Shown: positions 20,864 through 51,833 of the stretch, piece by piece
How the letters are laid out: each line of letters starts with the position of its first letter
Numbering within the stretch: the first letter of the stretch is position 1
Assembly: GCF_054482595.1 (NCBI RefSeq)
Contig: NZ_CM137008.1
Length of the DNA stretch: 64,000 nt
Direction: 5' to 3' (one strand)
Program-made: the position numbers and the translations under genes
Notes under the pieces: model-generated
Databases searched by the model: none
Seen by the model: only the letters and a program-made list of their open reading frames with translations
Told to the model about the DNA's origin: nothing

Positions 20864-20898
20864 AAAGGCCAGTCTCAAGCGAGGCTGGCCTTTTTCTT
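20864..20898 (+). terminator. Rho-independent terminator after rpoS
   Basis: GC hairpin GGCCAG...CTGGCC followed by TTTTTCTTTT. Confidence 0.8.
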
Positions 20899-20967
20899 TT
20901 GTTTGGGAAGCTTGTGTTTTTGTCGCCTGGATAAGACACGTCAGCGTCCTACCCGGCAATTTGCATC

Positions 20968-21375
20968 CTATGTGTTCATCATCTTGCGCACCAGCTGCAC
21001 AAACAGCTCCTGCTCTTCTGCACTCAAACGCCCCAAAAATTCCTCATCCACGCTGTCACCAATCGGTATCGCCGCAGCAAGTATCTTTTCTCCTTCGGCA
21101 GTCAGCCAGACAAAGCGACGCCGCTTGTCAGCGGCATCATGTTCACGTCTGACTAAGCCACGATTCTCCATTCTTGCCAACATTTCTGCCAACGTTGCTT
21201 TGGTGCTGACTGCTGCTTCTATCAGTGCCACCTGTTCGATACCAGGCTTATCAGCAATGGCGCGCATCACCGCATACTGTGGTTTGGTCAGGTCAGGTAA
21301 CTCGTGCTGCCAGCGAGCCGTGTGCTGCTGAAAAAGCTGTCGTAACTGATGGAACGCTTTATTTCGTAACGCCAT
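20968..21375 (-). CDS. hosA: MarR/SlyA-family transcriptional regulator (135 aa from MALRNK...)
   Basis: Winged-helix MarR-like sequence; divergent from the UbiX/UbiD cassette, as in the O157-type rpoS-mutS region. Confidence 0.8.
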   Translation of the reverse strand: MALRNKAFHQLRQLFQQHTARWQHELPDLTKPQYAVMRAIADKPGIEQVALIEAAVSTKATLAEMLARMENRGLVRREHDAADKRRRFVWLTAEGEKILAAAIPIGDSVDEEFLGRLSAEEQELFVQLVRKMMNT

Positions 21376-21521
21376 GTAAACTCCGGGCAAACTATCTGCC
21401 GCTATCATAGCGGTTTTTCAGTGACGAAGGGGATGTTGTTACTTTTCAGTGCTTGCCGCAATGAGAACAGAGGCGTATTTTAATAATAACGTTCGTATAC
21501 GAACAATTAAGAGAGTAAGCA

Positions 21522-22115
21522 ATGAAACTGATCGTCGGTATGACAGGGGCTACCGGTGCGCCTCTTGGTGTGGCATTACTGCAAGCGCTGCGGGAGATGC
21601 CGAATGTCGAGACTCATCTGGTGATGTCGAAGTGGGCGAAAACCACCATTGAACTGGAAACGCCTTACAGCGCCCGCGATGTTGCTGCCCTCGCTGACTT
21701 CAGCCATAACCCGGCGGATCAGGCGGCGACCATCTCCTCAGGTTCCTTTCGTACCGACGGCATGATCGTTATTCCGTGCAGTATGAAAACGCTCGCCGGT
21801 ATCCGCGCTGGTTACGCTGATGGCCTGGTAGGGCGCGCGGCGGACGTCGTGCTCAAAGAAGGCCGCAAACTGGTGCTGGTGCCGCGTGAAATGCCGCTTA
21901 GCACCATCCATCTCGAAAATATGCTCGCACTTTCACGCATGGGCGTGGCGATGGTGCCGCCGATGCCTGCCTTTTATAACCATCCCGAAACGGTAGATGA
22001 CATTGTCCACCATGTAGTAGCCCGCGTGCTGGATCAATTTGGCCTCGAACATCCCCACGCCAGGCGCTGGCAAGGATTGCCGCAGGTCCGGAATTTTTAT
22101 CAGGAGAATGAATAA
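21522..22115 (+). CDS. ecdB: UbiX-like flavin prenyltransferase, decarboxylase B subunit (197 aa)
   Basis: MKLIVGMTGATGAPLGVALLQAL... UbiX/Pad1 family. Confidence 0.88.
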   Translation: MKLIVGMTGATGAPLGVALLQALREMPNVETHLVMSKWAKTTIELETPYSARDVAALADFSHNPADQAATISSGSFRTDGMIVIPCSMKTLAGIRAGYADGLVGRAADVVLKEGRKLVLVPREMPLSTIHLENMLALSRMGVAMVPPMPAFYNHPETVDDIVHHVVARVLDQFGLEHPHARRWQGLPQVRNFYQENE

Positions 22116-23542
22116 TGGCATTTGATGATTTACGCAGCTTTTTACAGGCGCTTGATGACCACGGCCAGTTACTGAAAATCAGCGAAGAGGTGAACGCGGA
22201 ACCGGATCTGGCTGCCGCTGCCAACGCCACCGGGCGTATCGGCGATGGTGCACCGGCGCTGTGGTTTGATAATATTCGCGGTTTTACCGATGCCCGCGTG
22301 GCGATGAATACCATCGGTTCCTGGCAGAACCACGCGATTTCCCTGGGCCTGCCGCCAAACACCCCGGTTAAAAAACAGATTGATGAGTTTATCCGCCGCT
22401 GGGATAACTTCCCGATCGCCCCGGAGCGCCGCGCCAATCCAGCCTGGGCGCAGAACACCGTCGATGGTGACGAGATTAATCTGTTCGATATCCTGCCGCT
22501 GTTTCGTTTAAACGACGGTGATGGCGGTTTCTATCTCGACAAAGCGTGCGTGGTTTCCCGCGATCCGCTCGACCCGGATAACTTCGGCAAGCAGAACGTC
22601 GGCATCTACCGCATGGAAGTGAAGGGCAAGCGTAAGCTCGGCCTGCAACCGGTGCCGATGCACGATATCGCCCTGCATCTGCATAAAGCAGAAGAGCGCG
22701 GTGAAGATCTACCTATTGCGATCACGCTCGGTAACGATCCGATCATCACGCTGATGGGCGCAACGCCACTGAAATACGATCAGTCTGAGTATGAAATGGC
22801 AGGCGCGCTGCGTGAAAGCCCGTACCCGATCGCCACCGCCCCGCTGACCGGTTTTGATGTGCCGTGGGGTTCAGAAGTGATCCTCGAAGGGGTCATCGAA
22901 AGCCGTAAACGCGAAATTGAAGGGCCGTTCGGTGAGTTTACCGGACACTACTCCGGCGGGCGTAACATGACCGTGGTGCGCATCGATAAAGTCTCTTACC
23001 GCACCAGGCCGATTTTCGAATCGCTGTACCTCGGCATGCCGTGGACCGAAATCGACTACCTGATGGGGCCAGCCACCTGTGTGCCGCTGTATCAGCAACT
23101 TAAAGCCGAGTTCCCGGAAGTACAGGCGGTGAACGCCATGTACACCCACGGCCTGCTGGCGATTATCTCCACCAAAAAACGCTACGGCGGCTTTGCCCGC
23201 GCGGTGGGCCTGCGTGCGATGACCACGCCGCACGGTCTGGGCTACGTAAAGATGGTGATTATGGTCGATGAAGACGTTGACCCGTTCAACCTGCCGCAGG
23301 TGATGTGGGCGCTCTCCTCGAAAGTAAATCCGGCAGGGGATTTGGTGCAGTTGCCGAATATGTCCGTGCTGGAACTCGACCCTGGCTCAAGCCCGGCGGG
23401 GATCACCGACAAGCTGATTATCGACGCCACCACGCCTGTCGCCCCGGACAACCGTGGTCACTACAGCCAGCCGGTGGTGGATTTGCCGGAAACCAAAGCC
23501 TGGGCTGAAAAACTGACCGCTATGCTGGCCGCACGTAAATAA
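22115..23542 (+). CDS. ecdC: UbiD-family (hydroxy)aromatic acid decarboxylase, C subunit (475 aa)
   Basis: 475-aa UbiD-like ORF translationally coupled to the UbiX-like gene. Confidence 0.88.
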   Translation: MAFDDLRSFLQALDDHGQLLKISEEVNAEPDLAAAANATGRIGDGAPALWFDNIRGFTDARVAMNTIGSWQNHAISLGLPPNTPVKKQIDEFIRRWDNFPIAPERRANPAWAQNTVDGDEINLFDILPLFRLNDGDGGFYLDKACVVSRDPLDPDNFGKQNVGIYRMEVKGKRKLGLQPVPMHDIALHLHKAEERGEDLPIAITLGNDPIITLMGATPLKYDQSEYEMAGALRESPYPIATAPLTGFDVPWGSEVILEGVIESRKREIEGPFGEFTGHYSGGRNMTVVRIDKVSYRTRPIFESLYLGMPWTEIDYLMGPATCVPLYQQLKAEFPEVQAVNAMYTHGLLAIISTKKRYGGFARAVGLRAMTTPHGLGYVKMVIMVDEDVDPFNLPQVMWALSSKVNPAGDLVQLPNMSVLELDPGSSPAGITDKLIIDATTPVAPDNRGHYSQPVVDLPETKAWAEKLTAMLAARK

Positions 23543-23552
23543 GGAGAACAAG

Positions 23553-23789
23553 ATGATTTGTCCACGTTGTGCCGATGAACAGATTGAAGTGATGGCGAAA
23601 TCGCCGGTGAAAGATGTCTGGACGGTATATCAGTGCCAGCATTGCCTTTATACCTGGCGCGATACCGAACCGCTGCGCCGTACCAGCCGCGAACATTATC
23701 CCGAAGCGTTCCGCATGACGCAGAAAGATATTGATGACGCGCCAATGGTGCCGAGCATCCCGCCGCTGCTGGCGGAAGGTAAGCGCTAA
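23553..23789 (+). CDS. ecdD: Small D subunit of the UbiD/UbiX-type decarboxylase (78 aa), Cys-rich
   Basis: 78-aa ORF with CPRC...CQHC motifs directly downstream of the UbiD-like gene. Confidence 0.75.
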   Translation: MICPRCADEQIEVMAKSPVKDVWTVYQCQHCLYTWRDTEPLRRTSREHYPEAFRMTQKDIDDAPMVPSIPPLLAEGKR

Positions 23790-23797
23790 TAAAAAGT

Positions 23798-23825
23798 GCC
23801 GGGTAGTGGCTTTGCTTTACCCGGC
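23798..23825. terminator. Hairpin between convergent ecdD and pphB, probably a terminator
   Basis: GCCGGGTAG...CTACCCGGC inverted repeat flanked by A/T runs. Confidence 0.55.
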
Positions 23826-23829
23826 CTCA

Positions 23830-24486
23830 TTACTTTATTTTATAAAATGACAGCCGCCCGCTTTTCGGCGATCCGGTATCAATATAAATCTGGTTAGCGA
23901 ACGTCTGAATGTTATCAAACATCATATGTCCAAATATAAAATAATCAGCGCCGTTTATTTGTTGTAACTCGCCATTAAGCGATTTCTGCACACGATCAAC
24001 AGGCCAGAGTAATTCGCTCTCCGCTATTTCTTTACCAAAGAGATATTCACTCCCCGGATAATCTGCATGTGCGATGACATATTTTATGTTGTCGTTAGTG
24101 ATTTCAATAATATGTGGAAGGTGATGGAATTTCAGCAACAGATCTGTAGCTTCTTTTTGCTCTGAATCATTTAAATCGAAAAACCAGTCACCACCGCTGG
24201 CAAGCCACATATTGCCATCGCCGGTCGCGAACGCATCCAGCGCCATTGCTTCGTGGTTGCCTTTAACGGAGATAAACCAGGGCTGGTTTAGCAGGCGCAG
24301 GACGTTAAGACTCTCCGGCCCACGATCAATATTATCGCCGACAGAAATAAGTAAGTCGGTTTCGGGGAAAAAAGAGAGTTGATGTAAGCGGGATTGTAAT
24401 AACTGATATTCACCATGAATATCACCAACGACCCATATATGGCGATAGTGATGGGCATTGATTTTTTGATAGCGTGTAGATGGCAT
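23830..24486 (-). CDS. pphB: Serine/threonine protein phosphatase 2 (218 aa)
   Basis: 218-aa ORF with metallophosphatase motifs (GDIHG, GDNIDRG, GNHE). Confidence 0.92.
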   Translation of the reverse strand: MPSTRYQKINAHHYRHIWVVGDIHGEYQLLQSRLHQLSFFPETDLLISVGDNIDRGPESLNVLRLLNQPWFISVKGNHEAMALDAFATGDGNMWLASGGDWFFDLNDSEQKEATDLLLKFHHLPHIIEITNDNIKYVIAHADYPGSEYLFGKEIAESELLWPVDRVQKSLNGELQQINGADYFIFGHMMFDNIQTFANQIYIDTGSPKSGRLSFYKIK

Positions 24487-27829: not shown

Positions 27830-29908
27830 TTAAATCAATGCCGATTTATCAATTCCCAGTCGCTTCATCCGTGACAGCAGGGTCGTGCGTTTCAGCCCCA
27901 GACGTTGCGCAGCGCCTTTAGGCCCGGCAACCACGCCGTTAGTTTCTTTCAGCACGCGAACAATCAACTGATATTCATCTTCGCCCTCCTGAGCGACAAC
28001 CGTTGCGGCAGGCGGCGTTTCAGGCTCCGGTAAAGCAATATCTGGCAATGACAGCTGCAGCACGTTGCCGCGTGTTAGCAATACCGCGCGCTCAATGACG
28101 TTTTCCAGTTCGCGTACGTTACCCGGCCACTCCATATTGCTCAAGGTGCGCAACGTCTCGGCAGGAATGCTGTCGATATTGCGCCCCAGACGACGGGCAA
28201 TTTTGAAGGTAAAGGCTTTCGCCAGCAGCGGAATATCTTCCGGACGCTCGCGTAGTGGCGGAAGGTGAATCGGGAATACGTTCAGGCGGTAATAGAGATC
28301 GCTACGGAACTCACGGTCGGCGACCATTTTTTTCAGATCGCGGTTAGTCGCGGCGATTAGACGCACGTCCGTCTGAATGATTTTGTTGCTGCCGAGGCGT
28401 TCAAACTCCTGTTCCTGCAATACACGCAGCAACTTCGGCTGTAACTCCAGTGGCATATCGCCCACTTCGTCGAGGAACAGGGAGCTTTTATCCGCCAGTT
28501 CAAAACGACCGATACGCTGGGCGCTGGCACCGGTAAAAGCCCCACGCTCATGACCAAACAGATCGCTCTCCAGCAATCCGGCAGGCATCGCCGCGCAGTT
28601 CATTTTGACCATGCGGCGATTATTACGCCCACTGAGATTATGGATAGCACGGGCAATCAGCTCTTTACCCGTGCCAGTTTCACCGAGGATCAGCACGGTA
28701 CTGTCACTTTGCGCCACCATTTCAACTTGTTTAAGCACGCTGTACATGGCTTCGCTGCGGCCAATAATCTCGCCAAATTCACTATCAACATTGTTGAGCT
28801 GCTCGGTCAGGGCGAGGTTTTCATCAACCAGCCGTTCTTTCAGACGATGGATTTCCTGATAGGCGAGGGCGTTATCGACAGCGATTGCCACACGTTCGGC
28901 AATCTGGCGCAGTAAATTCAGATTGGTAGTGGTAAACACTTTCTCTTCACATTGCGCCAGTTTCAGCACGCCCAGCATGGTGTCGCCAGACATCAGCGGT
29001 AACAGGCACAAGGTTTGAATCTGGTTGCCCCAGGTATCGAACAACATGCGTTCATACGGGGCTAAATCATCCCGCTCGTGGAGATTAATCAGCAGCATCT
29101 CTTTACTTTTGAACACGCGTTCGGTGAGGGTTCCGGCTTCATCGACTTCGCTCTGTTCGTGGGCGGGATGCTGTTTATCAAGATAGTGAGTGGAGTAGAT
29201 GTTGAGTTTGTTTTTACGGTGGCTGCGTAAGACGATACTGATATCGTCAATATCGAAATAGTAATGGATTTCTTTGGCGACTTCGCTGACCAGTTCGTCC
29301 ATATCCAGGCGGGAAAGCACCGCGTTGGTGATGGCGACCAGGATGCGGAAGTTATCGCGTTCCCGGCATAACAACTCATAGTCGACATTGTTAACGACGC
29401 GGCTCTGGATTTGTTCGGTGACGACAGAAACGATCTGCGTAAATGTTTGCAGACGATTGAACTCTTTTTCGCTCCAGGGGCGATCGTCATAACGAATAAA
29501 TTCACAGCCACCAAAAATATGCCCTTCCGCCGCCAGTGGCATCAGGCAATAGTGACCAAATTTGGGGTATAGCCCACCTGCGGCCAGCTGCGGCCAGGTT
29601 TCACAAAATTCTTCGTAACTGCAATGCAGCGTATCAGGGCGCGACAAAATGCTGCGTACCGGACCGTGTGCCAGAACAGTTTCGTCTTCATATTTAATGG
29701 GGGTGTCTTTTTCACGCGATGCGTAATAAGACGCACGTTGAGTCTGCGCTTGCCACAACACAATAGCCGCGTTGTCGGCGAGCGCAGAACGCTTTACCAG
29801 TTGCGAAAGAGCCTCACACAGCGAGGCCAGATCGGGCTGCTGCAATAGTGTCCGAGTGATGTCGAACAACCCTTGCTGTCCGAGATCACTCATCGGTGTA
29901 TATGACAT
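27830..29908 (-). CDS. fhlA: Formate hydrogenlyase transcriptional activator, sigma54-dependent (692 aa from MSYTPMSDLG)
   Basis: GAF domains, AAA+ sigma54-activator domain ([14 protein letters not shown]) and C-terminal HTH. Confidence 0.95.
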   Translation of the reverse strand: MSYTPMSDLGQQGLFDITRTLLQQPDLASLCEALSQLVKRSALADNAAIVLWQAQTQRASYYASREKDTPIKYEDETVLAHGPVRSILSRPDTLHCSYEEFCETWPQLAAGGLYPKFGHYCLMPLAAEGHIFGGCEFIRYDDRPWSEKEFNRLQTFTQIVSVVTEQIQSRVVNNVDYELLCRERDNFRILVAITNAVLSRLDMDELVSEVAKEIHYYFDIDDISIVLRSHRKNKLNIYSTHYLDKQHPAHEQSEVDEAGTLTERVFKSKEMLLINLHERDDLAPYERMLFDTWGNQIQTLCLLPLMSGDTMLGVLKLAQCEEKVFTTTNLNLLRQIAERVAIAVDNALAYQEIHRLKERLVDENLALTEQLNNVDSEFGEIIGRSEAMYSVLKQVEMVAQSDSTVLILGETGTGKELIARAIHNLSGRNNRRMVKMNCAAMPAGLLESDLFGHERGAFTGASAQRIGRFELADKSSLFLDEVGDMPLELQPKLLRVLQEQEFERLGSNKIIQTDVRLIAATNRDLKKMVADREFRSDLYYRLNVFPIHLPPLRERPEDIPLLAKAFTFKIARRLGRNIDSIPAETLRTLSNMEWPGNVRELENVIERAVLLTRGNVLQLSLPDIALPEPETPPAATVVAQEGEDEYQLIVRVLKETNGVVAGPKGAAQRLGLKRTTLLSRMKRLGIDKSALI

Positions 29909-32382: not shown

Positions 32383-33245
32383 CGCTGTGTCTCCAGCCAG
32401 TTCAGCCACTGGTCCATCCCTTCGCCGCTGGTGGCGGAAATAAGGATGATTTCAATTTCTGGATTGACTTCGCGGGCGCAGGCGATGCACTTCTCAACGT
32501 CAAAGTTGAGATACGGCAACAGGTCAACTTTGTTGAGCAGCATCAGCGAGGCGGCGGCAAACATATGCGGATATTTCAGCGGTTTGTCTTCACCTTCGGT
32601 AACGGAAAGCACCGCCACTTTGTGTTTTTCACCGAGATCGAAGCTCGCCGGGCATACGAGGTTGCCAACGTTTTCGATAAACAGAATACCGTTATCGTCC
32701 AGTGGCAGGCGCGGTGCGGCGTCAGCAATCATCTGTGCGTCAAGATGGCAGCCTTTACCGGTATTCACCTGAATCGCTGGTGTGCCGGTAGCGCGAATGC
32801 GTGCGGCATCGTTCACGGTTTGCTGGTCACCTTCAATAACCGCGCACGGAACGCTGTCTTTCAGGCGCATTAAGGTTTCCGTCAGCAGGGTGGTTTTACC
32901 GGAACCAGGGCTGGAAACCAGGTTGAGCACCAGTTGCTTGCGGGCAGCAAAGCGCGCGCGGTTGCGTTCAGCCAGACGGTTGTTTTTGTCCAGCACGTCA
33001 ATTTCGACTTCCAGCATCCGGCGCTGGCTCATGCCCGGTGCGTGAGTGCCCGCTTCGCCATGACCGTAATGCAGGTCGCCTTCTTCAGTCTGGCTGGGGG
33101 TAAATTCAGGCGCTTTAATGCCGGTGATTTTCATCTTCGGGCGTGCCGCCGGGGCAAATGGCGCGCTACGAAACGCGGAATGAGGGTTATGTTCATCACC
33201 CTCGATATACAGGTTGCCTTCACCGCAACCGCATGTTGTACACAT
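32373..33245 (-). CDS. hypB: Hydrogenase nickel-incorporation GTPase HypB (290 aa)
   Basis: His/Cys-rich N-terminus [10 protein letters not shown] and GTPase motif GSGKTT. Confidence 0.93.
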
Positions 33246-33248
33246 CGC

Positions 33249-33599
33249 TCACTCCTGGTCTATTTCTATCCGCCGAATCTGTAAACCGTCGTCTGCCACA
33301 ATCTGTAGCATGTCACCATGACACTGTGGACAGCGGCGGACGCGCTGGGTCAGTAGCGTCACATACTGTTGGCATGTTTCACACCAGCATTCGGCCTCTT
33401 GTTCTTCGAGGTGCAGTTTACAACCTTCCGCCACGCTGCCGCGGCAAACCAGATCAAAACAAAAGGCAAGAGAGCTGGTTTCGACACAAGAAAATGCGCC
33501 AATTTTGAGCCAGACCCCAGTTACGCGTTTTGCGCCGTGTTTTGCGGCCTGCTGTTCGATCAATTCCAGTGCCCGTTGGCAGAGGGTTATTTCGTGCAT
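33249..33599 (-). CDS. hypA: Hydrogenase nickel-insertion protein HypA (116 aa from MHEITLCQ)
   Basis: MHEITLCQRALELIE..., Zn-finger CxxC...CxxC. Confidence 0.92.
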   Translation of the reverse strand: MHEITLCQRALELIEQQAAKHGAKRVTGVWLKIGAFSCVETSSLAFCFDLVCRGSVAEGCKLHLEEQEAECWCETCQQYVTLLTQRVRRCPQCHGDMLQIVADDGLQIRRIEIDQE

Positions 33600-33621
33600 A
33601 TCGCCTCCCATTAACTATGGC

Positions 33622-33637
33622 CAGCTACAAGCAATAA
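33622..33637 (-). promoter_or_regulatory. Candidate sigma54 (-24/-12) promoter for the hyp operon
   Basis: Reverse complement reads CTGGCACAATTATTGC (TGGCAC-N5-TTGC) just upstream of hypA. Confidence 0.55.
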
Positions 33638-33757
33638 TTGTGCCAGTATTGATTATCCCTGCGGTGAATAATGTCGATGATGTCGAAATGACACGTCGAC
33701 ACGGCGACGAAATTCATCTTTAGCTTAAAAATCGTTTTAATAACAATGAATTAAAAG

Positions 33758-33774
33758 TTGGCACAGAAAATGCT
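33758..33774 (+). promoter_or_regulatory. Candidate sigma54 (-24/-12) promoter for the hyc operon
   Basis: TGGCACAGAAAATGCTT, GG and GC at consensus spacing, ~35 bp upstream of hycA ATG. Confidence 0.6.
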
Positions 33775-33810
33775 TAAAGCTGGCATCTCTGTTAAACGGG
33801 TAACCTGACA

Positions 33811-34272
33811 ATGACTATTTGGGAAATAAGCGAGAAAGCCGATTACATCGCACAGCGGCATCGTCGCCTACAGGACCAGTGGCACATCTACTGCAATTCG
33901 CTGGTTCAGGGGATCACGTTATCGAAAGCGCGCCTGCATCACGCCATGAGCTGCGCGCCGGACAAAGAACTCTGTTTCGTCCTTTTTGAACATTTTCGTA
34001 TTTACGTCACCCTGGCGGATGGCTTTAACAGCCACACCATCGAGTATTACGTCGAAACAAAAGAGGGCGAAGACAAACAGCGGATTGCGCAGGCGCAACT
34101 GAGCATTGACGGCATGATTGATGGCAAGGTCAACATCCGCGATCGCGAACAGGTTCTGGAACACTATCTCGAAAAAATCGCTGGCGTTTACGACAGCTTA
34201 TACACCGCTATTGAAAACAATGTGCCGGTGAATTTAAGCCAACTGGTAAAGGGACAAAGCCCGGCAGCATGA
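33811..34272 (+). CDS. hycA: Formate hydrogenlyase regulatory protein HycA (153 aa)
   Basis: 153-aa ORF, first gene of hyc operon. Confidence 0.9.
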   Translation: MTIWEISEKADYIAQRHRRLQDQWHIYCNSLVQGITLSKARLHHAMSCAPDKELCFVLFEHFRIYVTLADGFNSHTIEYYVETKEGEDKQRIAQAQLSIDGMIDGKVNIRDREQVLEHYLEKIAGVYDSLYTAIENNVPVNLSQLVKGQSPAA

Positions 34273-34396
34273 GCTGAGGCTTTGCCCGTTTTGCAGGCGT
34301 TACGCCTGTTTGGGGATGGGCGTGTCGATGAGTGTCGAAAATGACATTTCATCGGCATGTTTTCGTCAAAAATGACAATCACCTGAGGAATGCCTG

Positions 34397-35008
34397 GTGA
34401 ATCGTTTTGTAATTGCTGACTCCACGCTCTGTATCGGCTGCCACACCTGTGAGGCCGCCTGTTCAGAGACGCATCGCCAGCACGGCCTGCAATCAATGCC
34501 GCGCCTGAGAGTGATGCTAAATGAAAAAGAATCTGCGCCGCAGCTCTGTCACCACTGTGAAGATGCACCCTGCGCGGTGGTCTGCCCGGTTAACGCCATC
34601 ACCCGCGTTGATGGGGCCGTGCAGTTGAATGAAAGCCTGTGCGTAAGCTGCAAACTGTGCGGCATCGCCTGCCCGTTTGGCGCAATCGAATTTTCCGGCA
34701 GCCGTCCGCTGGATATTCCGGCAAACGCCAATACCCCGAAAGCGCCACCGGCACCGCCTGCTCCGGCGCGTGTCAGCACATTGCTTGACTGGGTGCCAGG
34801 TATTCGCGCGATCGCCGTCAAATGTGACCTTTGTAGCTTTGATGAACAAGGTCCGGCCTGCGTGCGGATGTGCCCGACTAAAGCCCTGCATCTGGTGGAT
34901 AACACCGATATCGCCCGCGTCAGCAAACGTAAGCGTGAGCTGACCTTTAACACGGACTTTGGCGATCTCACCTTGTTTCAGCAGGCTCAAAGTGGAGAGG
35001 CTAAATGA
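34397..35008 (+). CDS. hycB: FHL iron-sulfur subunit HycB (203 aa)
   Basis: Multiple CxxCxxCxxxCP ferredoxin motifs. Confidence 0.93.
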   Translation: MNRFVIADSTLCIGCHTCEAACSETHRQHGLQSMPRLRVMLNEKESAPQLCHHCEDAPCAVVCPVNAITRVDGAVQLNESLCVSCKLCGIACPFGAIEFSGSRPLDIPANANTPKAPPAPPAPARVSTLLDWVPGIRAIAVKCDLCSFDEQGPACVRMCPTKALHLVDNTDIARVSKRKRELTFNTDFGDLTLFQQAQSGEAK

Positions 35009-36831
35009 GCGCAATTTCCCTGATCAATAGCGGCGTGGCGTGGTTTGTCGCCGCCGCTGTTCTGGCATTTCTCTTTTCTTTTCAAAAGGCGCTAAGCGGC
35101 TGGATAGCCGGAATTGGCGGCGCGGTTGGTAGTCTGTATACGGCAGCCGCGGGCTTCACTGTACTGACTGGCGCGGTTGGCGTGAGCGGTGCGCTGTCGC
35201 TGGTAAGCTACGATGTGCAAATCTCTCCGCTTAACGCGATTTGGCTGATTACGCTCGGTCTGTGCGGTCTGTTTGTCAGCCTCTACAACATTGACTGGCA
35301 TCGCCACGCGCAGGTGAAGTGCAACGGCTTGCAGATCAATATGTTGATGGCTGCCGCCGTCTGCGCCGTCATCGCCAGCAACCTCGGCATGTTCGTGGTA
35401 ATGGCTGAAGTCATGGCCTTGTGTGCGGTGTTCCTTACCAGCAACAGCAAAGAGGGCAAACTGTGGTTTGCGCTGGGGCGTCTTGGCACTCTGCTGCTGG
35501 TGATTGCTTGCTGGCTGCTGTGGCAGCGTTATGGCACGCTGGATCTGCGCCTGCTGGATATGCGTATGCAACAGCTGCCGCTCGGTTCCGATATCTGGCT
35601 GCTCGGTGTGATTGGCTTTGGCCTGCTGGCCGGGATTATTCCGCTGCACGGCTGGGTGCCGCAGGCACATGCTAACGCCTCTGCGCCAGCTGCCGCGTTG
35701 TTTTCTACGGTAGTCATGAAAATTGGCCTGCTGGGCATTTTAACCCTGTCACTGCTGGGCGGTAATGCACCGCTGTGGTGGGGGATCGCGCTGCTGGTGC
35801 TCGGTATGATCACCGCGTTTGTCGGCGGTCTGTATGCGTTGATGGAACATAATATCCAGCGTCTACTGGCTTACCACACCCTGGAAAATATCGGCATTAT
35901 CCTGCTGGGGCTGGGCGCTGGCGTAACGGGTATCGCGCTCGAACAACCGGCGCTGATTGCTCTTGGCCTGGTCGGTGGTCTGTACCATCTGCTTAACCAT
36001 AGCCTGTTCAAAAGCGTACTGTTCCTCGGGGCGGGGAGCGTCTGGTTCCGTACCGGTCATCGCGATATCGAAAAACTCGGTGGTATTGGCAAGAAAATGC
36101 CGGTTATCTCCATCGCTATGTTAGTCGGGCTGATGGCAATGGCTGCACTGCCGCCGCTGAACGGTTTTGCCGGGGAATGGGTTATCTATCAATCCTTCTT
36201 CAAACTGAGCAATAGTGGCGCGTTTGTTGCCCGTCTGCTGGGGCCGCTGCTCGCTGTGGGTCTGGCAATTACCGGTGCGCTGGCGGTGATGTGTATGGCG
36301 AAAGTCTATGGCGTCACGTTCCTCGGCGCGCCGCGTACCAAAGAAGCCGAAAACGCCACCTGTGCACCGCTCCTGATGAGCGTAAGCGTAGTGGCACTGG
36401 CGATTTGCTGCGTAATTGGCGGTGTTGCTGCGCCGTGGCTACTGCCGATGCTCTCTGCTGCTGTACCTCTGCCGCTGGAGCCTGCTAACACCACCGTTTC
36501 TCAACCGATGATCACGTTGCTGCTGATTGCCTGCCCGCTGCTGCCATTCATCATTATGGCGATTTGCAAAGGCGATCGTTTGCCATCGCGTTCCCGCGGC
36601 GCGGCCTGGGTGTGCGGCTACGACCACGAAAAATCAATGGTGATTACCGCTCACGGTTTTGCCATGCCGGTGAAACAGGCGTTTGCGCCGGTGCTGAAAC
36701 TGCGCAAATGGCTGAATCCGGTGTCGCTGGTGCCGGGCTGGCAATGCGAAGGCAGTGCGTTGCTGTTCCGCCGGATGGCGCTGGTTGAACTGGCGGTACT
36801 GGTGGTGATTATTGTTTCACGAGGAGCCTGA
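35005..36831 (+). CDS. hycC: FHL membrane subunit HycC (608 aa)
   Basis: 608-aa polytopic membrane ORF, NuoL/M-like. Confidence 0.93.
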   Translation: MSAISLINSGVAWFVAAAVLAFLFSFQKALSGWIAGIGGAVGSLYTAAAGFTVLTGAVGVSGALSLVSYDVQISPLNAIWLITLGLCGLFVSLYNIDWHRHAQVKCNGLQINMLMAAAVCAVIASNLGMFVVMAEVMALCAVFLTSNSKEGKLWFALGRLGTLLLVIACWLLWQRYGTLDLRLLDMRMQQLPLGSDIWLLGVIGFGLLAGIIPLHGWVPQAHANASAPAAALFSTVVMKIGLLGILTLSLLGGNAPLWWGIALLVLGMITAFVGGLYALMEHNIQRLLAYHTLENIGIILLGLGAGVTGIALEQPALIALGLVGGLYHLLNHSLFKSVLFLGAGSVWFRTGHRDIEKLGGIGKKMPVISIAMLVGLMAMAALPPLNGFAGEWVIYQSFFKLSNSGAFVARLLGPLLAVGLAITGALAVMCMAKVYGVTFLGAPRTKEAENATCAPLLMSVSVVALAICCVIGGVAAPWLLPMLSAAVPLPLEPANTTVSQPMITLLLIACPLLPFIIMAICKGDRLPSRSRGAAWVCGYDHEKSMVITAHGFAMPVKQAFAPVLKLRKWLNPVSLVPGWQCEGSALLFRRMALVELAVLVVIIVSRGA

Positions 36832-41210: not shown

Positions 41211-41673
41211 CGTTTTACTCTGTGTTGGCAATAGCATGATGGGCGATGATGGCGCAGGTCCGCTGCTGGCGGAAAAGTGCGCCGCCGCGCCGAAAGGTAA
41301 CTGGGTGGTGATTGATGGCGGTAGTGCACCGGAAAACGACATCGTCGCCATCCGTGAACTGCGCCCTACACGACTGCTGATTGTCGATGCCACGGATATG
41401 GGGCTAAACCCCGGCGAAATCCGCATCATCGACCCGGATGATATCGCCGAGATGTTTATGATGACTACCCATAACATGCCGTTGAACTACCTTATCGATC
41501 AGTTGAAAGAAGACATTGGCGAAGTGATTTTCCTCGGCATCCAGCCGGATATCGTCGGCTTTTACTACCCGATGACCCAGCCGATTAAAGATGCGGTAGA
41601 AACCGTTTATCAACGGCTGGAAGGCTGGGAAGGGAACGGCGGCTTCGCGCAGTTAGCGGTGGAAGAAGAGTAG
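41203..41673 (+). CDS. hycI: Hydrogenase 3 maturation endopeptidase HycI (156 aa)
   Basis: 156-aa ORF, last gene of hyc operon. Confidence 0.92.
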   Translation: MTDVLLCVGNSMMGDDGAGPLLAEKCAAAPKGNWVVIDGGSAPENDIVAIRELRPTRLLIVDATDMGLNPGEIRIIDPDDIAEMFMMTTHNMPLNYLIDQLKEDIGEVIFLGIQPDIVGFYYPMTQPIKDAVETVYQRLEGWEGNGGFAQLAVEEE

Positions 41674-41744
41674 TTTTTCAATAAGGAATCAGGACAGGGA
41701 TGTTCTTGATGGGGTGAACCAGCTCTGATGCCAAATGCTAAATT

Positions 41745-44981: not shown

Positions 44982-45992
44982 ATGACGACGATGCTGGAAG
45001 TGGCGAAGCGCGCCGGGGTTTCAAAAGCGACCGTTTCCCGCGTGCTTTCAGGTAATGGCTACGTCAGCCAGGAGACTAAAGATCGCGTGTTTCAGGCGGT
45101 AGAAGAGAGCGGTTACCGCCCAAACTTGCTGGCGCGCAATCTGTCGGCGAAGAGTACTCAGACGCTGGGGCTGGTAGTGACCAACACGCTTTACCACGGC
45201 ATTTATTTTAGTGAATTACTCTTTCATGCCGCGCGAATGGCGGAAGAGAAAGGGCGGCAGTTGCTATTGGCAGATGGTAAACACAGCGCCGAAGAAGAGC
45301 GCCAGGCGATTCAGTATCTGCTGGATTTGCGCTGCGACGCCATTATGATTTACCCGCGTTTTTTAAGCGTGGATGAGATCGATGACATCATTGACGCGCA
45401 CAGTCAGCCGATAATGGTGCTTAATCGCCGCCTGCGCAAAAACAGCAGCCATAGCGTCTGGTGCGATCATAAACAGACCAGTTTTAACGCCGTGGCAGAG
45501 TTGATAAACGCCGGGCATCAGGAGATTGCTTTCCTTACCGGCTCGATGGATTCCCCCACCAGCATTGAACGTCTTGCCGGGTATAAAGACGCGCTGTCGC
45601 AGCATGGTATTGCGCTCAATGAAAAACTTATCGCTAACGGTAAATGGACACCTGCCAGCGGGGCCGAAGGGGTAGAAATGTTGCTCGAACGTGGGGCTAA
45701 ATTTAGCGCGTTAGTTGCCAGTAACGACGATATGGCGATAGGTGCGATGAAAGCGTTACACGAGCGCGGCGTAGCGGTGCCAGAGCAGGTGTCAGTTATC
45801 GGATTCGATGATATCGCAATTGCCCCCTATATCGTTCCGGCGCTCTCCAGCGTAAAAATTCCGGTGACTGAGATGATTCAGGAAATTATTGGACGGCTGA
45901 TTTTTATGCTCGATGGCGGGGATTTCTCACCGCCGAAAACCTTCAGCGGAAAACTGATCCGCCGCGACTCACTCATTGCTCTTTCGCGATAA
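44982..45992 (+). CDS. ascG: LacI/GalR-family repressor of the asc operon (336 aa from MTTMLEV)
   Basis: N-terminal HTH MTTMLEVAKRAGVSKATVSRVL, divergent from ascFB. Confidence 0.92.
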   Translation: MTTMLEVAKRAGVSKATVSRVLSGNGYVSQETKDRVFQAVEESGYRPNLLARNLSAKSTQTLGLVVTNTLYHGIYFSELLFHAARMAEEKGRQLLLADGKHSAEEERQAIQYLLDLRCDAIMIYPRFLSVDEIDDIIDAHSQPIMVLNRRLRKNSSHSVWCDHKQTSFNAVAELINAGHQEIAFLTGSMDSPTSIERLAGYKDALSQHGIALNEKLIANGKWTPASGAEGVEMLLERGAKFSALVASNDDMAIGAMKALHERGVAVPEQVSVIGFDDIAIAPYIVPALSSVKIPVTEMIQEIIGRLIFMLDGGDFSPPKTFSGKLIRRDSLIALSR

Positions 45993-46140
45993 ACATTGTC
46001 ATCACATGTCATCGTCACTAGTGTCGATGACATCTTTTTTCCTGCATTACAGAAATTAATTTCCTTAAATAACAGTGAATTAAAAACTGGCATGATTTGT
46101 GAATGTATCGGCGCATTAACTGTCATTGCTGGAGAATTTG

Positions 46141-51817: not shown

Positions 51818-51833
51818 TGCAGATTGCGTGCCA
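51818..51833 (-). promoter_or_regulatory. Candidate sigma54 promoter of norVW
   Basis: Reverse complement reads TGGCACGCAATCTGCA (TGGCAC-N5-CTGCA). Confidence 0.65.

Follow-up and report, generated by a model that had tools for sequence, protein, structure and literature searches.

The window, by which we mean the whole 64,000-nucleotide stretch of DNA that was analysed, derives from Escherichia coli. Many annotated genomes match its segment 33500-33900 with 100% identity and label it hypA and hycA; this sequence is found in 5425 of 5426 complete genomes. The window is collinear with K-12 MG1655 over 23831-46246, in reverse orientation and at ~98% identity, with 98-99% identity in the hypA-hycA region. 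The 211-bp spacer between the divergent genes hypA and hycA takes up exactly positions 33600-33810, which correspond to K-12 2850436-2850646. The two spacers differ by six SNPs, none of which falls in the GG and GC dinucleotides of the promoter elements or in the core of the putative enhancer described below; the six include one each at the predicted hyp +1, in the spacer of the hyc element and in an IHF-like box. The region is the long-established hyp/hyc system, here in an E. coli strain other than K-12; its divergent sigma-54 promoters respond to the formate sensor FhlA and serve the hydrogenase-3 (hyc) and hydrogenase-maturation (hyp) operons. The genes that frame and presumably control it are as follows.

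33249-33599, minus strand: hypA coding sequence, 116 aa, ATG at 33599 (NF002979, 241.8 bits)
33811-34272, plus strand: hycA coding sequence, 153 aa, anti-activator of FhlA, ATG at 33811 (NF007567, 300.6 bits)
27830-29908, minus strand: fhlA, sigma-54 enhancer-binding activator (NCBIfam NF011958, FhlA equivalog, 1548 bits over 1-692)

The fhlA gene follows hypE and closes the hypABCDE-fhlA transcription unit, has the same annotated position in NZ_CP033401 and K-12, and encodes the cognate enhancer-binding ATPase for sigma-54 promoters that is present in this genome. An earlier reading made from the sequence alone had taken the spacer for the hypA-hycA control region and had placed fhlA at the far end of the hyp operon; the identity to annotated E. 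coli genomes and the place of fhlA after hypE bear out both statements.

Two divergent sigma-54 promoters

Each strand of the spacer carries a -24/-12 element directed towards its own gene.

33645 to 33631, minus strand: P_hyp sigma-54 -24/-12 element TGGCACAATTATTGC, 0 mismatches to TGGCACNNNNNTTGC; ChIP-seq site OS28 in K-12
33759-33773, plus strand: P_hyc sigma-54 -24/-12 element TGGCACAGAAAATGC, 1 mismatch; ChIP-seq site OS27 in K-12

Compared with the consensus TGGCAC-N5-TTGC, both hyp and hyc agree, with GG and GC exactly 10 bp apart, and the single mismatch of P_hyc is an A for T before GC. The P_hyp element is identical to that of K-12, and P_hyc carries G at spacer position 33766, where K-12 has A. 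Between the two 15-mers lie 113 nt; counted from one -24 T to the other, the interval is 114 bp. The sequence-only reading was therefore right to see good elements on both strands, and its figure of about 120 bp between them was a fair one.

Within the window the -24/-12 motif is not significant by itself: 10 matches at no more than one mismatch compare with 7.5 expected, and TGGCAYN6TGC is matched four times against an expectation of 1.95. These four matches are P_hyp, P_hyc, the known norV promoter (51819-51833) and a site inside hycA (33880-33894). Two matches within one 211-bp spacer have an expectation of about 0.006, and each of them faces its own gene at 31-38 bp from the ATG. It is thus the context, namely the common spacer, the orientation, the distance and the conservation, that lifts the pair above chance, and not the rarity of the motif.

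The further match in hycA (TGGCACATCTACTGC, plus strand) lies 121 bp downstream of P_hyc. We rejected it as a promoter: the match arises from the codons W-H-I-Y-C, and about half of the orthologs lack it (His to Arg/Gln, TGC to TGT). It is probably a coincidence, although sigma-54 ChIP would not have separated it from the nearby peaks. Elsewhere in the window, TGGCACGCAATCTGC at 51819-51833 (minus strand) matches the published norV promoter ChIP-seq site OS25, and TGGCGCGTTTGTTGC at 36216-36230 (plus strand) matches the published intragenic hycC ChIP-seq site IS31.

For comparison, 80 orthologous loci from other Enterobacteriaceae species were fetched with HycA as the query, which together with the window and K-12 gave a set of 82 sequences. 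The hypA and hycA genes are divergent in all 80 loci, with spacers of 188-223 bp, and every one of the 82 spacers contains exactly one TGGCA[CT]N6TGC per strand in the same place. From the C of the -12 GC to the hypA ATG the distance is 30-36 bp in 81 of the 82 sequences (44 bp in the one outlier), and to the hycA ATG it is 36-39 bp throughout. TGGCA and TGC are invariant in the 82 sequences, while the bases of the element spacer vary freely, as expected from selection on -24/-12 only.

Published data place sigma-54 at both elements. The K-12 sigma-54 ChIP-seq study lists the two sites, flagged as experimentally confirmed in EcoCyc; OS28 at hypA (CTGGCACAATTATTGCT) has an FAT of 201 and a PSSM score of 14.09, both the top values among 42 intergenic sense sites, and OS27 at hycA has an FAT of 91. 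In another K-12 study the two appear as known sigma-54 promoters, at -46..-29 relative to the start codon of hypA and at -52..-35 relative to that of hycA, positions that match the window, and genomic SELEX (gSELEX) finds a holoenzyme peak within the hycA/hypA spacer. In Salmonella Typhimurium, sigma-54 binds the orthologous hyp and hyc sites (ChIP-chip signals of 71 and 31), and with a promiscuous activator supplied, hycABCDEFGHI and hypABCDE are 26-fold and 5.6-fold higher, respectively, in the wild type than in the rpoN mutant. For the original description, that Salmonella paper refers to Lutz et al. 1990 (Mol Microbiol 4:13, 'Characterization of divergent NtrA-dependent promoters...'). The divergent sigma-54 pair proposed from the letters of the window thus holds, being conserved in the 82 sequences and occupied at both sites in K-12 and Salmonella.

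It is very improbable that one or both motifs are non-productive sigma-54 sites and that the operons are transcribed from other promoters, for instance of the sigma-70 or FNR type. Such a reading could draw on an internal FNR-dependent promoter inside hypA, which presumably supplies hypBCDE-fhlA, and on the motif being no rarer than chance in the window; an FNR box, however, does not occur inside hypA at up to 2 mismatches. The ChIP-seq study in K-12 also reports many E. coli sigma-54 sites that are not known promoters, but the two motifs here keep fixed distances from their start codons in 82 species, both operons respond to rpoN in Salmonella, and both promoters carry the EcoCyc flag. As for sigma-70, the spacer holds one sigma-70-like site, not a convincing one, against a shuffled expectation of 1.3, and a scan of 33200-34450 for sigma-70-type promoters or terminators gave nothing above the shuffled expectation.

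Predicted starts and leaders

Transcription starts were predicted by placing +1 at 12 nt past the C of the -12 GC, which yields two leaders.

33600-33619, minus strand: predicted hypA 5' UTR, 20 nt, start 33619, as derived from the -12 element; the ChIP-seq table likewise gives 'Distance 20'
33785-33810, plus strand: predicted hycA 5' UTR, 26 nt, start 33785, as derived from the -12 element; the ChIP-seq table likewise gives 'Distance 26'

The predicted hypA leader reads 5'-CATAGTTAATGGGAGGCGAT-ATG. Its Shine-Dalgarno sequence GGGAGG (CCTCCC on the plus strand, 33605-33610) is invariant in 82 of 82 sequences, and the remainder of the leader is not conserved. The very short hypA 5' UTR suggested earlier is real as a prediction, at 20 nt and with the narrow range of -12-to-ATG distances seen in 81 of the 82 sequences. 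The accompanying statement that the element ends about 22 bp from the hypA start must be corrected: the -12 element ends 31 bp before the ATG, and it is the predicted leader that measures about 20 nt. Other sigma-54 leaders of E. coli measure 18 (rutA), 21 (zraS), 25 (zraP), 25 (pspG), 27 (hydN) and 28 nt (rtcB); in view of these similar lengths, the hypA leader stands at the short end and is no outlier. The list of open reading frames also offers an in-frame ATG at 33611, upstream of the hypA start, which is absent in other genera, so the annotated hypA start stands.

At the predicted hyp +1 (33619), the transcribed strand has C here and A in K-12, a SNP that might shift the hyp start by one base. 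The hycA 5' leader (TGTTAAACGGGTAACCTGACA, 33790-33810) is conserved across genera far beyond the hypA leader. An RNA-level explanation for this conservation was rejected: the hycA leader matches no Rfam family and shows neither a conserved fold nor covariation.

Candidate enhancers in and beyond the spacer

Apart from the two promoters and the Shine-Dalgarno sequence of hypA, the footprint of the 82 spacers comprises four conserved blocks: the core of a candidate upstream activating sequence (UAS-1), the GACGAAATTCA arm, an A/T-rich tract with an IHF-like box, and the hycA leader. Together with a second copy of the first block beyond hycA, the candidate control sites are as follows.

33664-33716, no strand assigned: UAS-1, putative FhlA-type enhancer, TGWCR/YGWCA repeats and a conserved block
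33741-33753, plus strand: IHF-like box TAACAATGAATTA, 1 mismatch to the IHF consensus WATCARNNNNTTR
34320-34377, no strand assigned: UAS-2, putative second FhlA-type site cluster, near copy of the UAS-1 core

The UAS-1 core ATGTCGATGATGTCGAAATGACACGTCGACA occupies 33671-33702, with TGWCR/YGWCA units at 33672, 33681, 33689 and 33697, spaced 8-9 bp, and with GACA at 33690-33693 invariant in the 82-sequence footprint. It contains the palindrome TGTCGA-N9-TCGACA, for which Salmonella and Citrobacter have the version TGACGA-N9-TCGTCA. The GACGAAATTCA arm (33705-33716) is less conserved, its conservation being limited to Escherichia, Salmonella and a part of Citrobacter. The published 16-bp FhlA consensus CATTTCGTACGAAATG (Leonhartsberger 2000, in the form quoted in another paper) has no match at up to 3 mismatches in the 64 kb, and only half-site-like pieces of it occur, TCGAAATG at 33683-33690 and ACGAAATT at 33708-33715. 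With no CATTTCGTACGAAATG match, UAS-1 and UAS-2 are assigned to FhlA by half-site-like units recognized post hoc. Clusters of at least 4 units per 40 bp number two in the 64 kb against 0.28 expected, a statistic that is indicative only because the unit was defined after inspecting these regions; one cluster lies in the hyp-hyc spacer (33662-33711) and the other upstream of hydN (45987-46046), whose promoter is FhlA-dependent as well. Such units also crowd the fdhF upstream region of K-12. Taken together with the conservation, this composition leads us to infer that UAS-1 is bound by FhlA, and the FhlA upstream activating sequence that the sequence-only reading proposed to look for between the promoters would be this FhlA-type enhancer at 33664-33716.

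The IHF-like box sits in the A/T-rich tract at 33720-33757 and ends 5 bp before the hyc -24 element, a position unusually close to that element. A strict match to WATCARNNNNTTR at the same offset (-18/-19 from TGGCA) is present in 33 of the 82 species. Hopper and colleagues are said to have described IHF binding at hyc in 1994. A further enhancer candidate, inside hycA at ~33960-34010 with TTTCGT motifs like those of the fdhF UAS, was rejected: its synonymous sites are the least conserved in the gene, with a third-position identity of 0.31-0.40 against a gene mean of 0.59.

The same order of sites recurs 12 kb away in the window.

45993-46114: hydN-hypF control region, units 45997-46032, box AATAACAGTGAATTAAAA 46069-46086, then CTGGCATGATTTGTGAA; predicted leader 27 nt

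As at hyc, a TGWCR cluster is followed by an A/T-rich tract with AATAACARTGAATTAAAA and then by the -24/-12 element. The units lie at -84 to -115 at hydN and at -86 to -111 at hyc, the leaders are 27 and 26 nt long, respectively, and the box AATAACARTGAATTAAAA abuts the hydN -24 element and is almost identical to the hyc IHF-like box. The hydN-hypF region differs from hyp/hyc in having a single promoter instead of a divergent pair, and a weaker -12 (GTGAA).

UAS-2, composed of GTGTCGATGAGTGTCGAAAATGACA ... TTTCGTCAAAAATGACA, ends 20 bp before the hycB GTG (34397). It repeats the UAS-1 core with two single-base insertions, and the unit scan finds five units in the hycA-hycB spacer. The pattern TGTCGATGAN{0,1}TGTCGAAAN{0,1}TGACA, written for both copies, matches only UAS-1 and UAS-2, with 0 matches expected. 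In 81 orthologous hycA-hycB spacers, which range over 67-146 bp and whose 5' parts are unalignable, UAS-2 is nearly invariant and thereby better conserved than UAS-1. No -24/-12 motif is found near it on either strand, and it lies about 730 bp upstream of the P_hyp start, behind hycA. Being conserved and without an adjoining promoter, UAS-2 may be a distal enhancer of P_hyp, may serve P_hyc as a looping partner or as an enhancer from downstream, or may have some other role.

In the same hycA-hycB spacer, a hairpin CAGGCGTTACGCCTG followed by TTTGGGG (34292-34312) directly follows the hycA stop, in a segment present only in Escherichia-like sequences; it resembles a weak terminator or attenuator placed between the two genes, and went unflagged in the consensus terminator scan.

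The distances between these sites vary in a stepwise manner. From -24 to -24, the promoters of the 82 species are 92 bp (3 species), 102-103 bp (19) or 112-116 bp (60) apart, with nothing in between, so the steps amount to about one helical turn (10-11 bp). The UAS-1 units stand at -55, -64, -72 and -80 (±2) from the predicted hyp start, a fixed spacing seen in Escherichia, Enterobacter, Citrobacter, Salmonella, Pseudescherichia and Kosakonia; some lineages, such as Klebsiella and Kluyvera, have a different pattern of UAS-1 units. Relative to the hyc start, UAS-1 is shifted by about 11 bp in the Citrobacter freundii group, by 22 bp in Pseudescherichia and by about 9 bp in Kosakonia. These alignments suggest that in most lineages UAS-1 is rigidly coupled in space to P_hyp, and that its spacing may fit the face-of-the-helix constraints typical of enhancer-dependent promoters. 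The pattern is suggestive rather than a test, given that it comes from few events (about 3-4 lineages) in related species.

Regulatory circuit and related systems

We consider it about 95% probable that the spacer is the hyp-hyc control region, with P_hyp and P_hyc as back-to-back, FhlA-driven sigma-54 promoters within a self-regulating circuit. As background, sigma-54 closed complexes need an AAA+ enhancer-binding protein, that of the formate regulon is the formate-responsive FhlA, and the literature describes P_hyp as FhlA-dependent too. In our model, RNA polymerase-sigma-54 binds P_hyp and P_hyc as closed complexes, as published ChIP shows for the K-12 allele, and fires only once the formate-activated enhancer-binding ATPase FhlA contacts the polymerase. 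FhlA would occupy the TGWCR units of UAS-1 (33664-33716), as composition and conservation suggest, and the IHF-like box would bend the DNA such that FhlA at about -86 to -111 may reach P_hyc. Transcripts are predicted to start near 33619 with a 20-nt leader from P_hyp, and near 33785 with a 26-nt leader from P_hyc. The position of fhlA as the last gene of the hyp operon would create positive feedback, and negative feedback would come from hycA, the gene of the FhlA antagonist, which stands first in the hyc operon. Counting against this model are the lack of a match to the published FhlA consensus, the one mismatch of the IHF-like box and its unusual closeness to the -24 element, and the mere 55-80 bp between UAS-1 and the hyp start, a short distance for DNA looping. 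The enhancer of P_hyp could be UAS-1, UAS-2 or both.

The odds are about even that the two promoters have separate enhancers, with UAS-1 acting through the IHF bend on P_hyc only and the distal UAS-2 acting on P_hyp with hycA in between. This arrangement would account for UAS-2 as an almost invariant near copy of the UAS-1 core that lacks a sigma-54 promoter of its own nearby, and would agree with the closeness of UAS-1 to P_hyp (-55 to -80). The distance of UAS-1 and the box before P_hyc moreover match the hydN enhancer before P_hydN. The Böck laboratory, in the work of Lutz in 1990 and Schlensog in 1994, reportedly assigned an FhlA site between hycA and hycB as the hyp enhancer. The spacing data speak against the arrangement, in that UAS-1 is in most lineages fixed to the hyp start and moves by ~9-22 bp, roughly one or two helical turns, relative to the hyc start, which would be unexpected if UAS-1 were irrelevant to P_hyp.

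Somewhat less probable, though still a serious candidate, is a shared enhancer, in which one FhlA assembly on UAS-1 would serve both promoters, as proposed for ZraR at zraP/zraSR; UAS-2 would then act as an FhlA reservoir, as a looping partner or in hycB control. Here the location of UAS-1 between the promoters, its conservation, its rigid placement relative to P_hyp in most lineages and the promoter-to-promoter steps of about 10-11 bp all fall into place. However, a shared enhancer gives no account of UAS-2 as the better-conserved copy, 55-80 bp is short for an enhancer-binding protein, and with few indel events (about 3-4 lineages) the spacing argument is statistically weak. We regard as unlikely a third arrangement, in which UAS-1 and UAS-2, 650 bp apart, are looped together by an FhlA oligomer that coordinates both promoters. 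UAS-1 would then be held at -55 to -80 from P_hyp and, through indels of whole turns only, stay on the same helical face with respect to P_hyc; if true, the loop would enclose hycA, the gene of FhlA's own antagonist.

The FhlA-driven circuit proposed above has its closest analogue elsewhere in E. coli at zraP/zraSR. The two share back-to-back sigma-54 promoters in one spacer (OS38 and OS39 at zraP/zraSR), short leaders (25 and 21 nt at zraP/zraSR) and an activator encoded in one of the two operons. They differ in the activator, which is ZraR, in the signal, which is zinc, and in the distance between motif centers, 154 bp as against 128 bp at hyp/hyc. To our knowledge, no second distal enhancer copy is known at zraP/zraSR.

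The hyp/hyc divergent sigma-54 promoters have been textbook formate-regulon material since 1990 and are present in EcoCyc (hypAp, hycAp), and the literature of 1990-2000 probably accords with, or already contains, both UAS-2 and the helical-turn spacing. The present comparison adds a quantitative picture of the bases and distances under selection, which is useful for engineering formate-inducible expression or hydrogen production and may help with the long-standing question of the enhancer used by hyp. It also illustrates that sigma-54 promoter pairs can be recognized from raw sequence alone.

In K-12 the locus, the 211-bp spacer, the flanking genes and the hypABCDE-fhlA order are the same; the hyp element and the enhancer core are identical, and the hyc element differs by one spacer base. 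Among strains, some E. coli carry a hypothetical gene and a HigB-family toxin/HTH antitoxin pair between hycI and ascB (NZ_CP033401, 28199-29861); the corresponding window positions 41669-41725 are, like K-12, without the HigB-family toxin insertion. Between rpoS and pphB/mutS (20894-23831) the window departs from K-12: in place of ygbI-ygbN it has hydroxyarylic acid decarboxylase B/C/D genes along with a gene for a MarR-family regulator. E. coli strains vary in this segment, and about 2378 of 5426 genomes share the version of the window.
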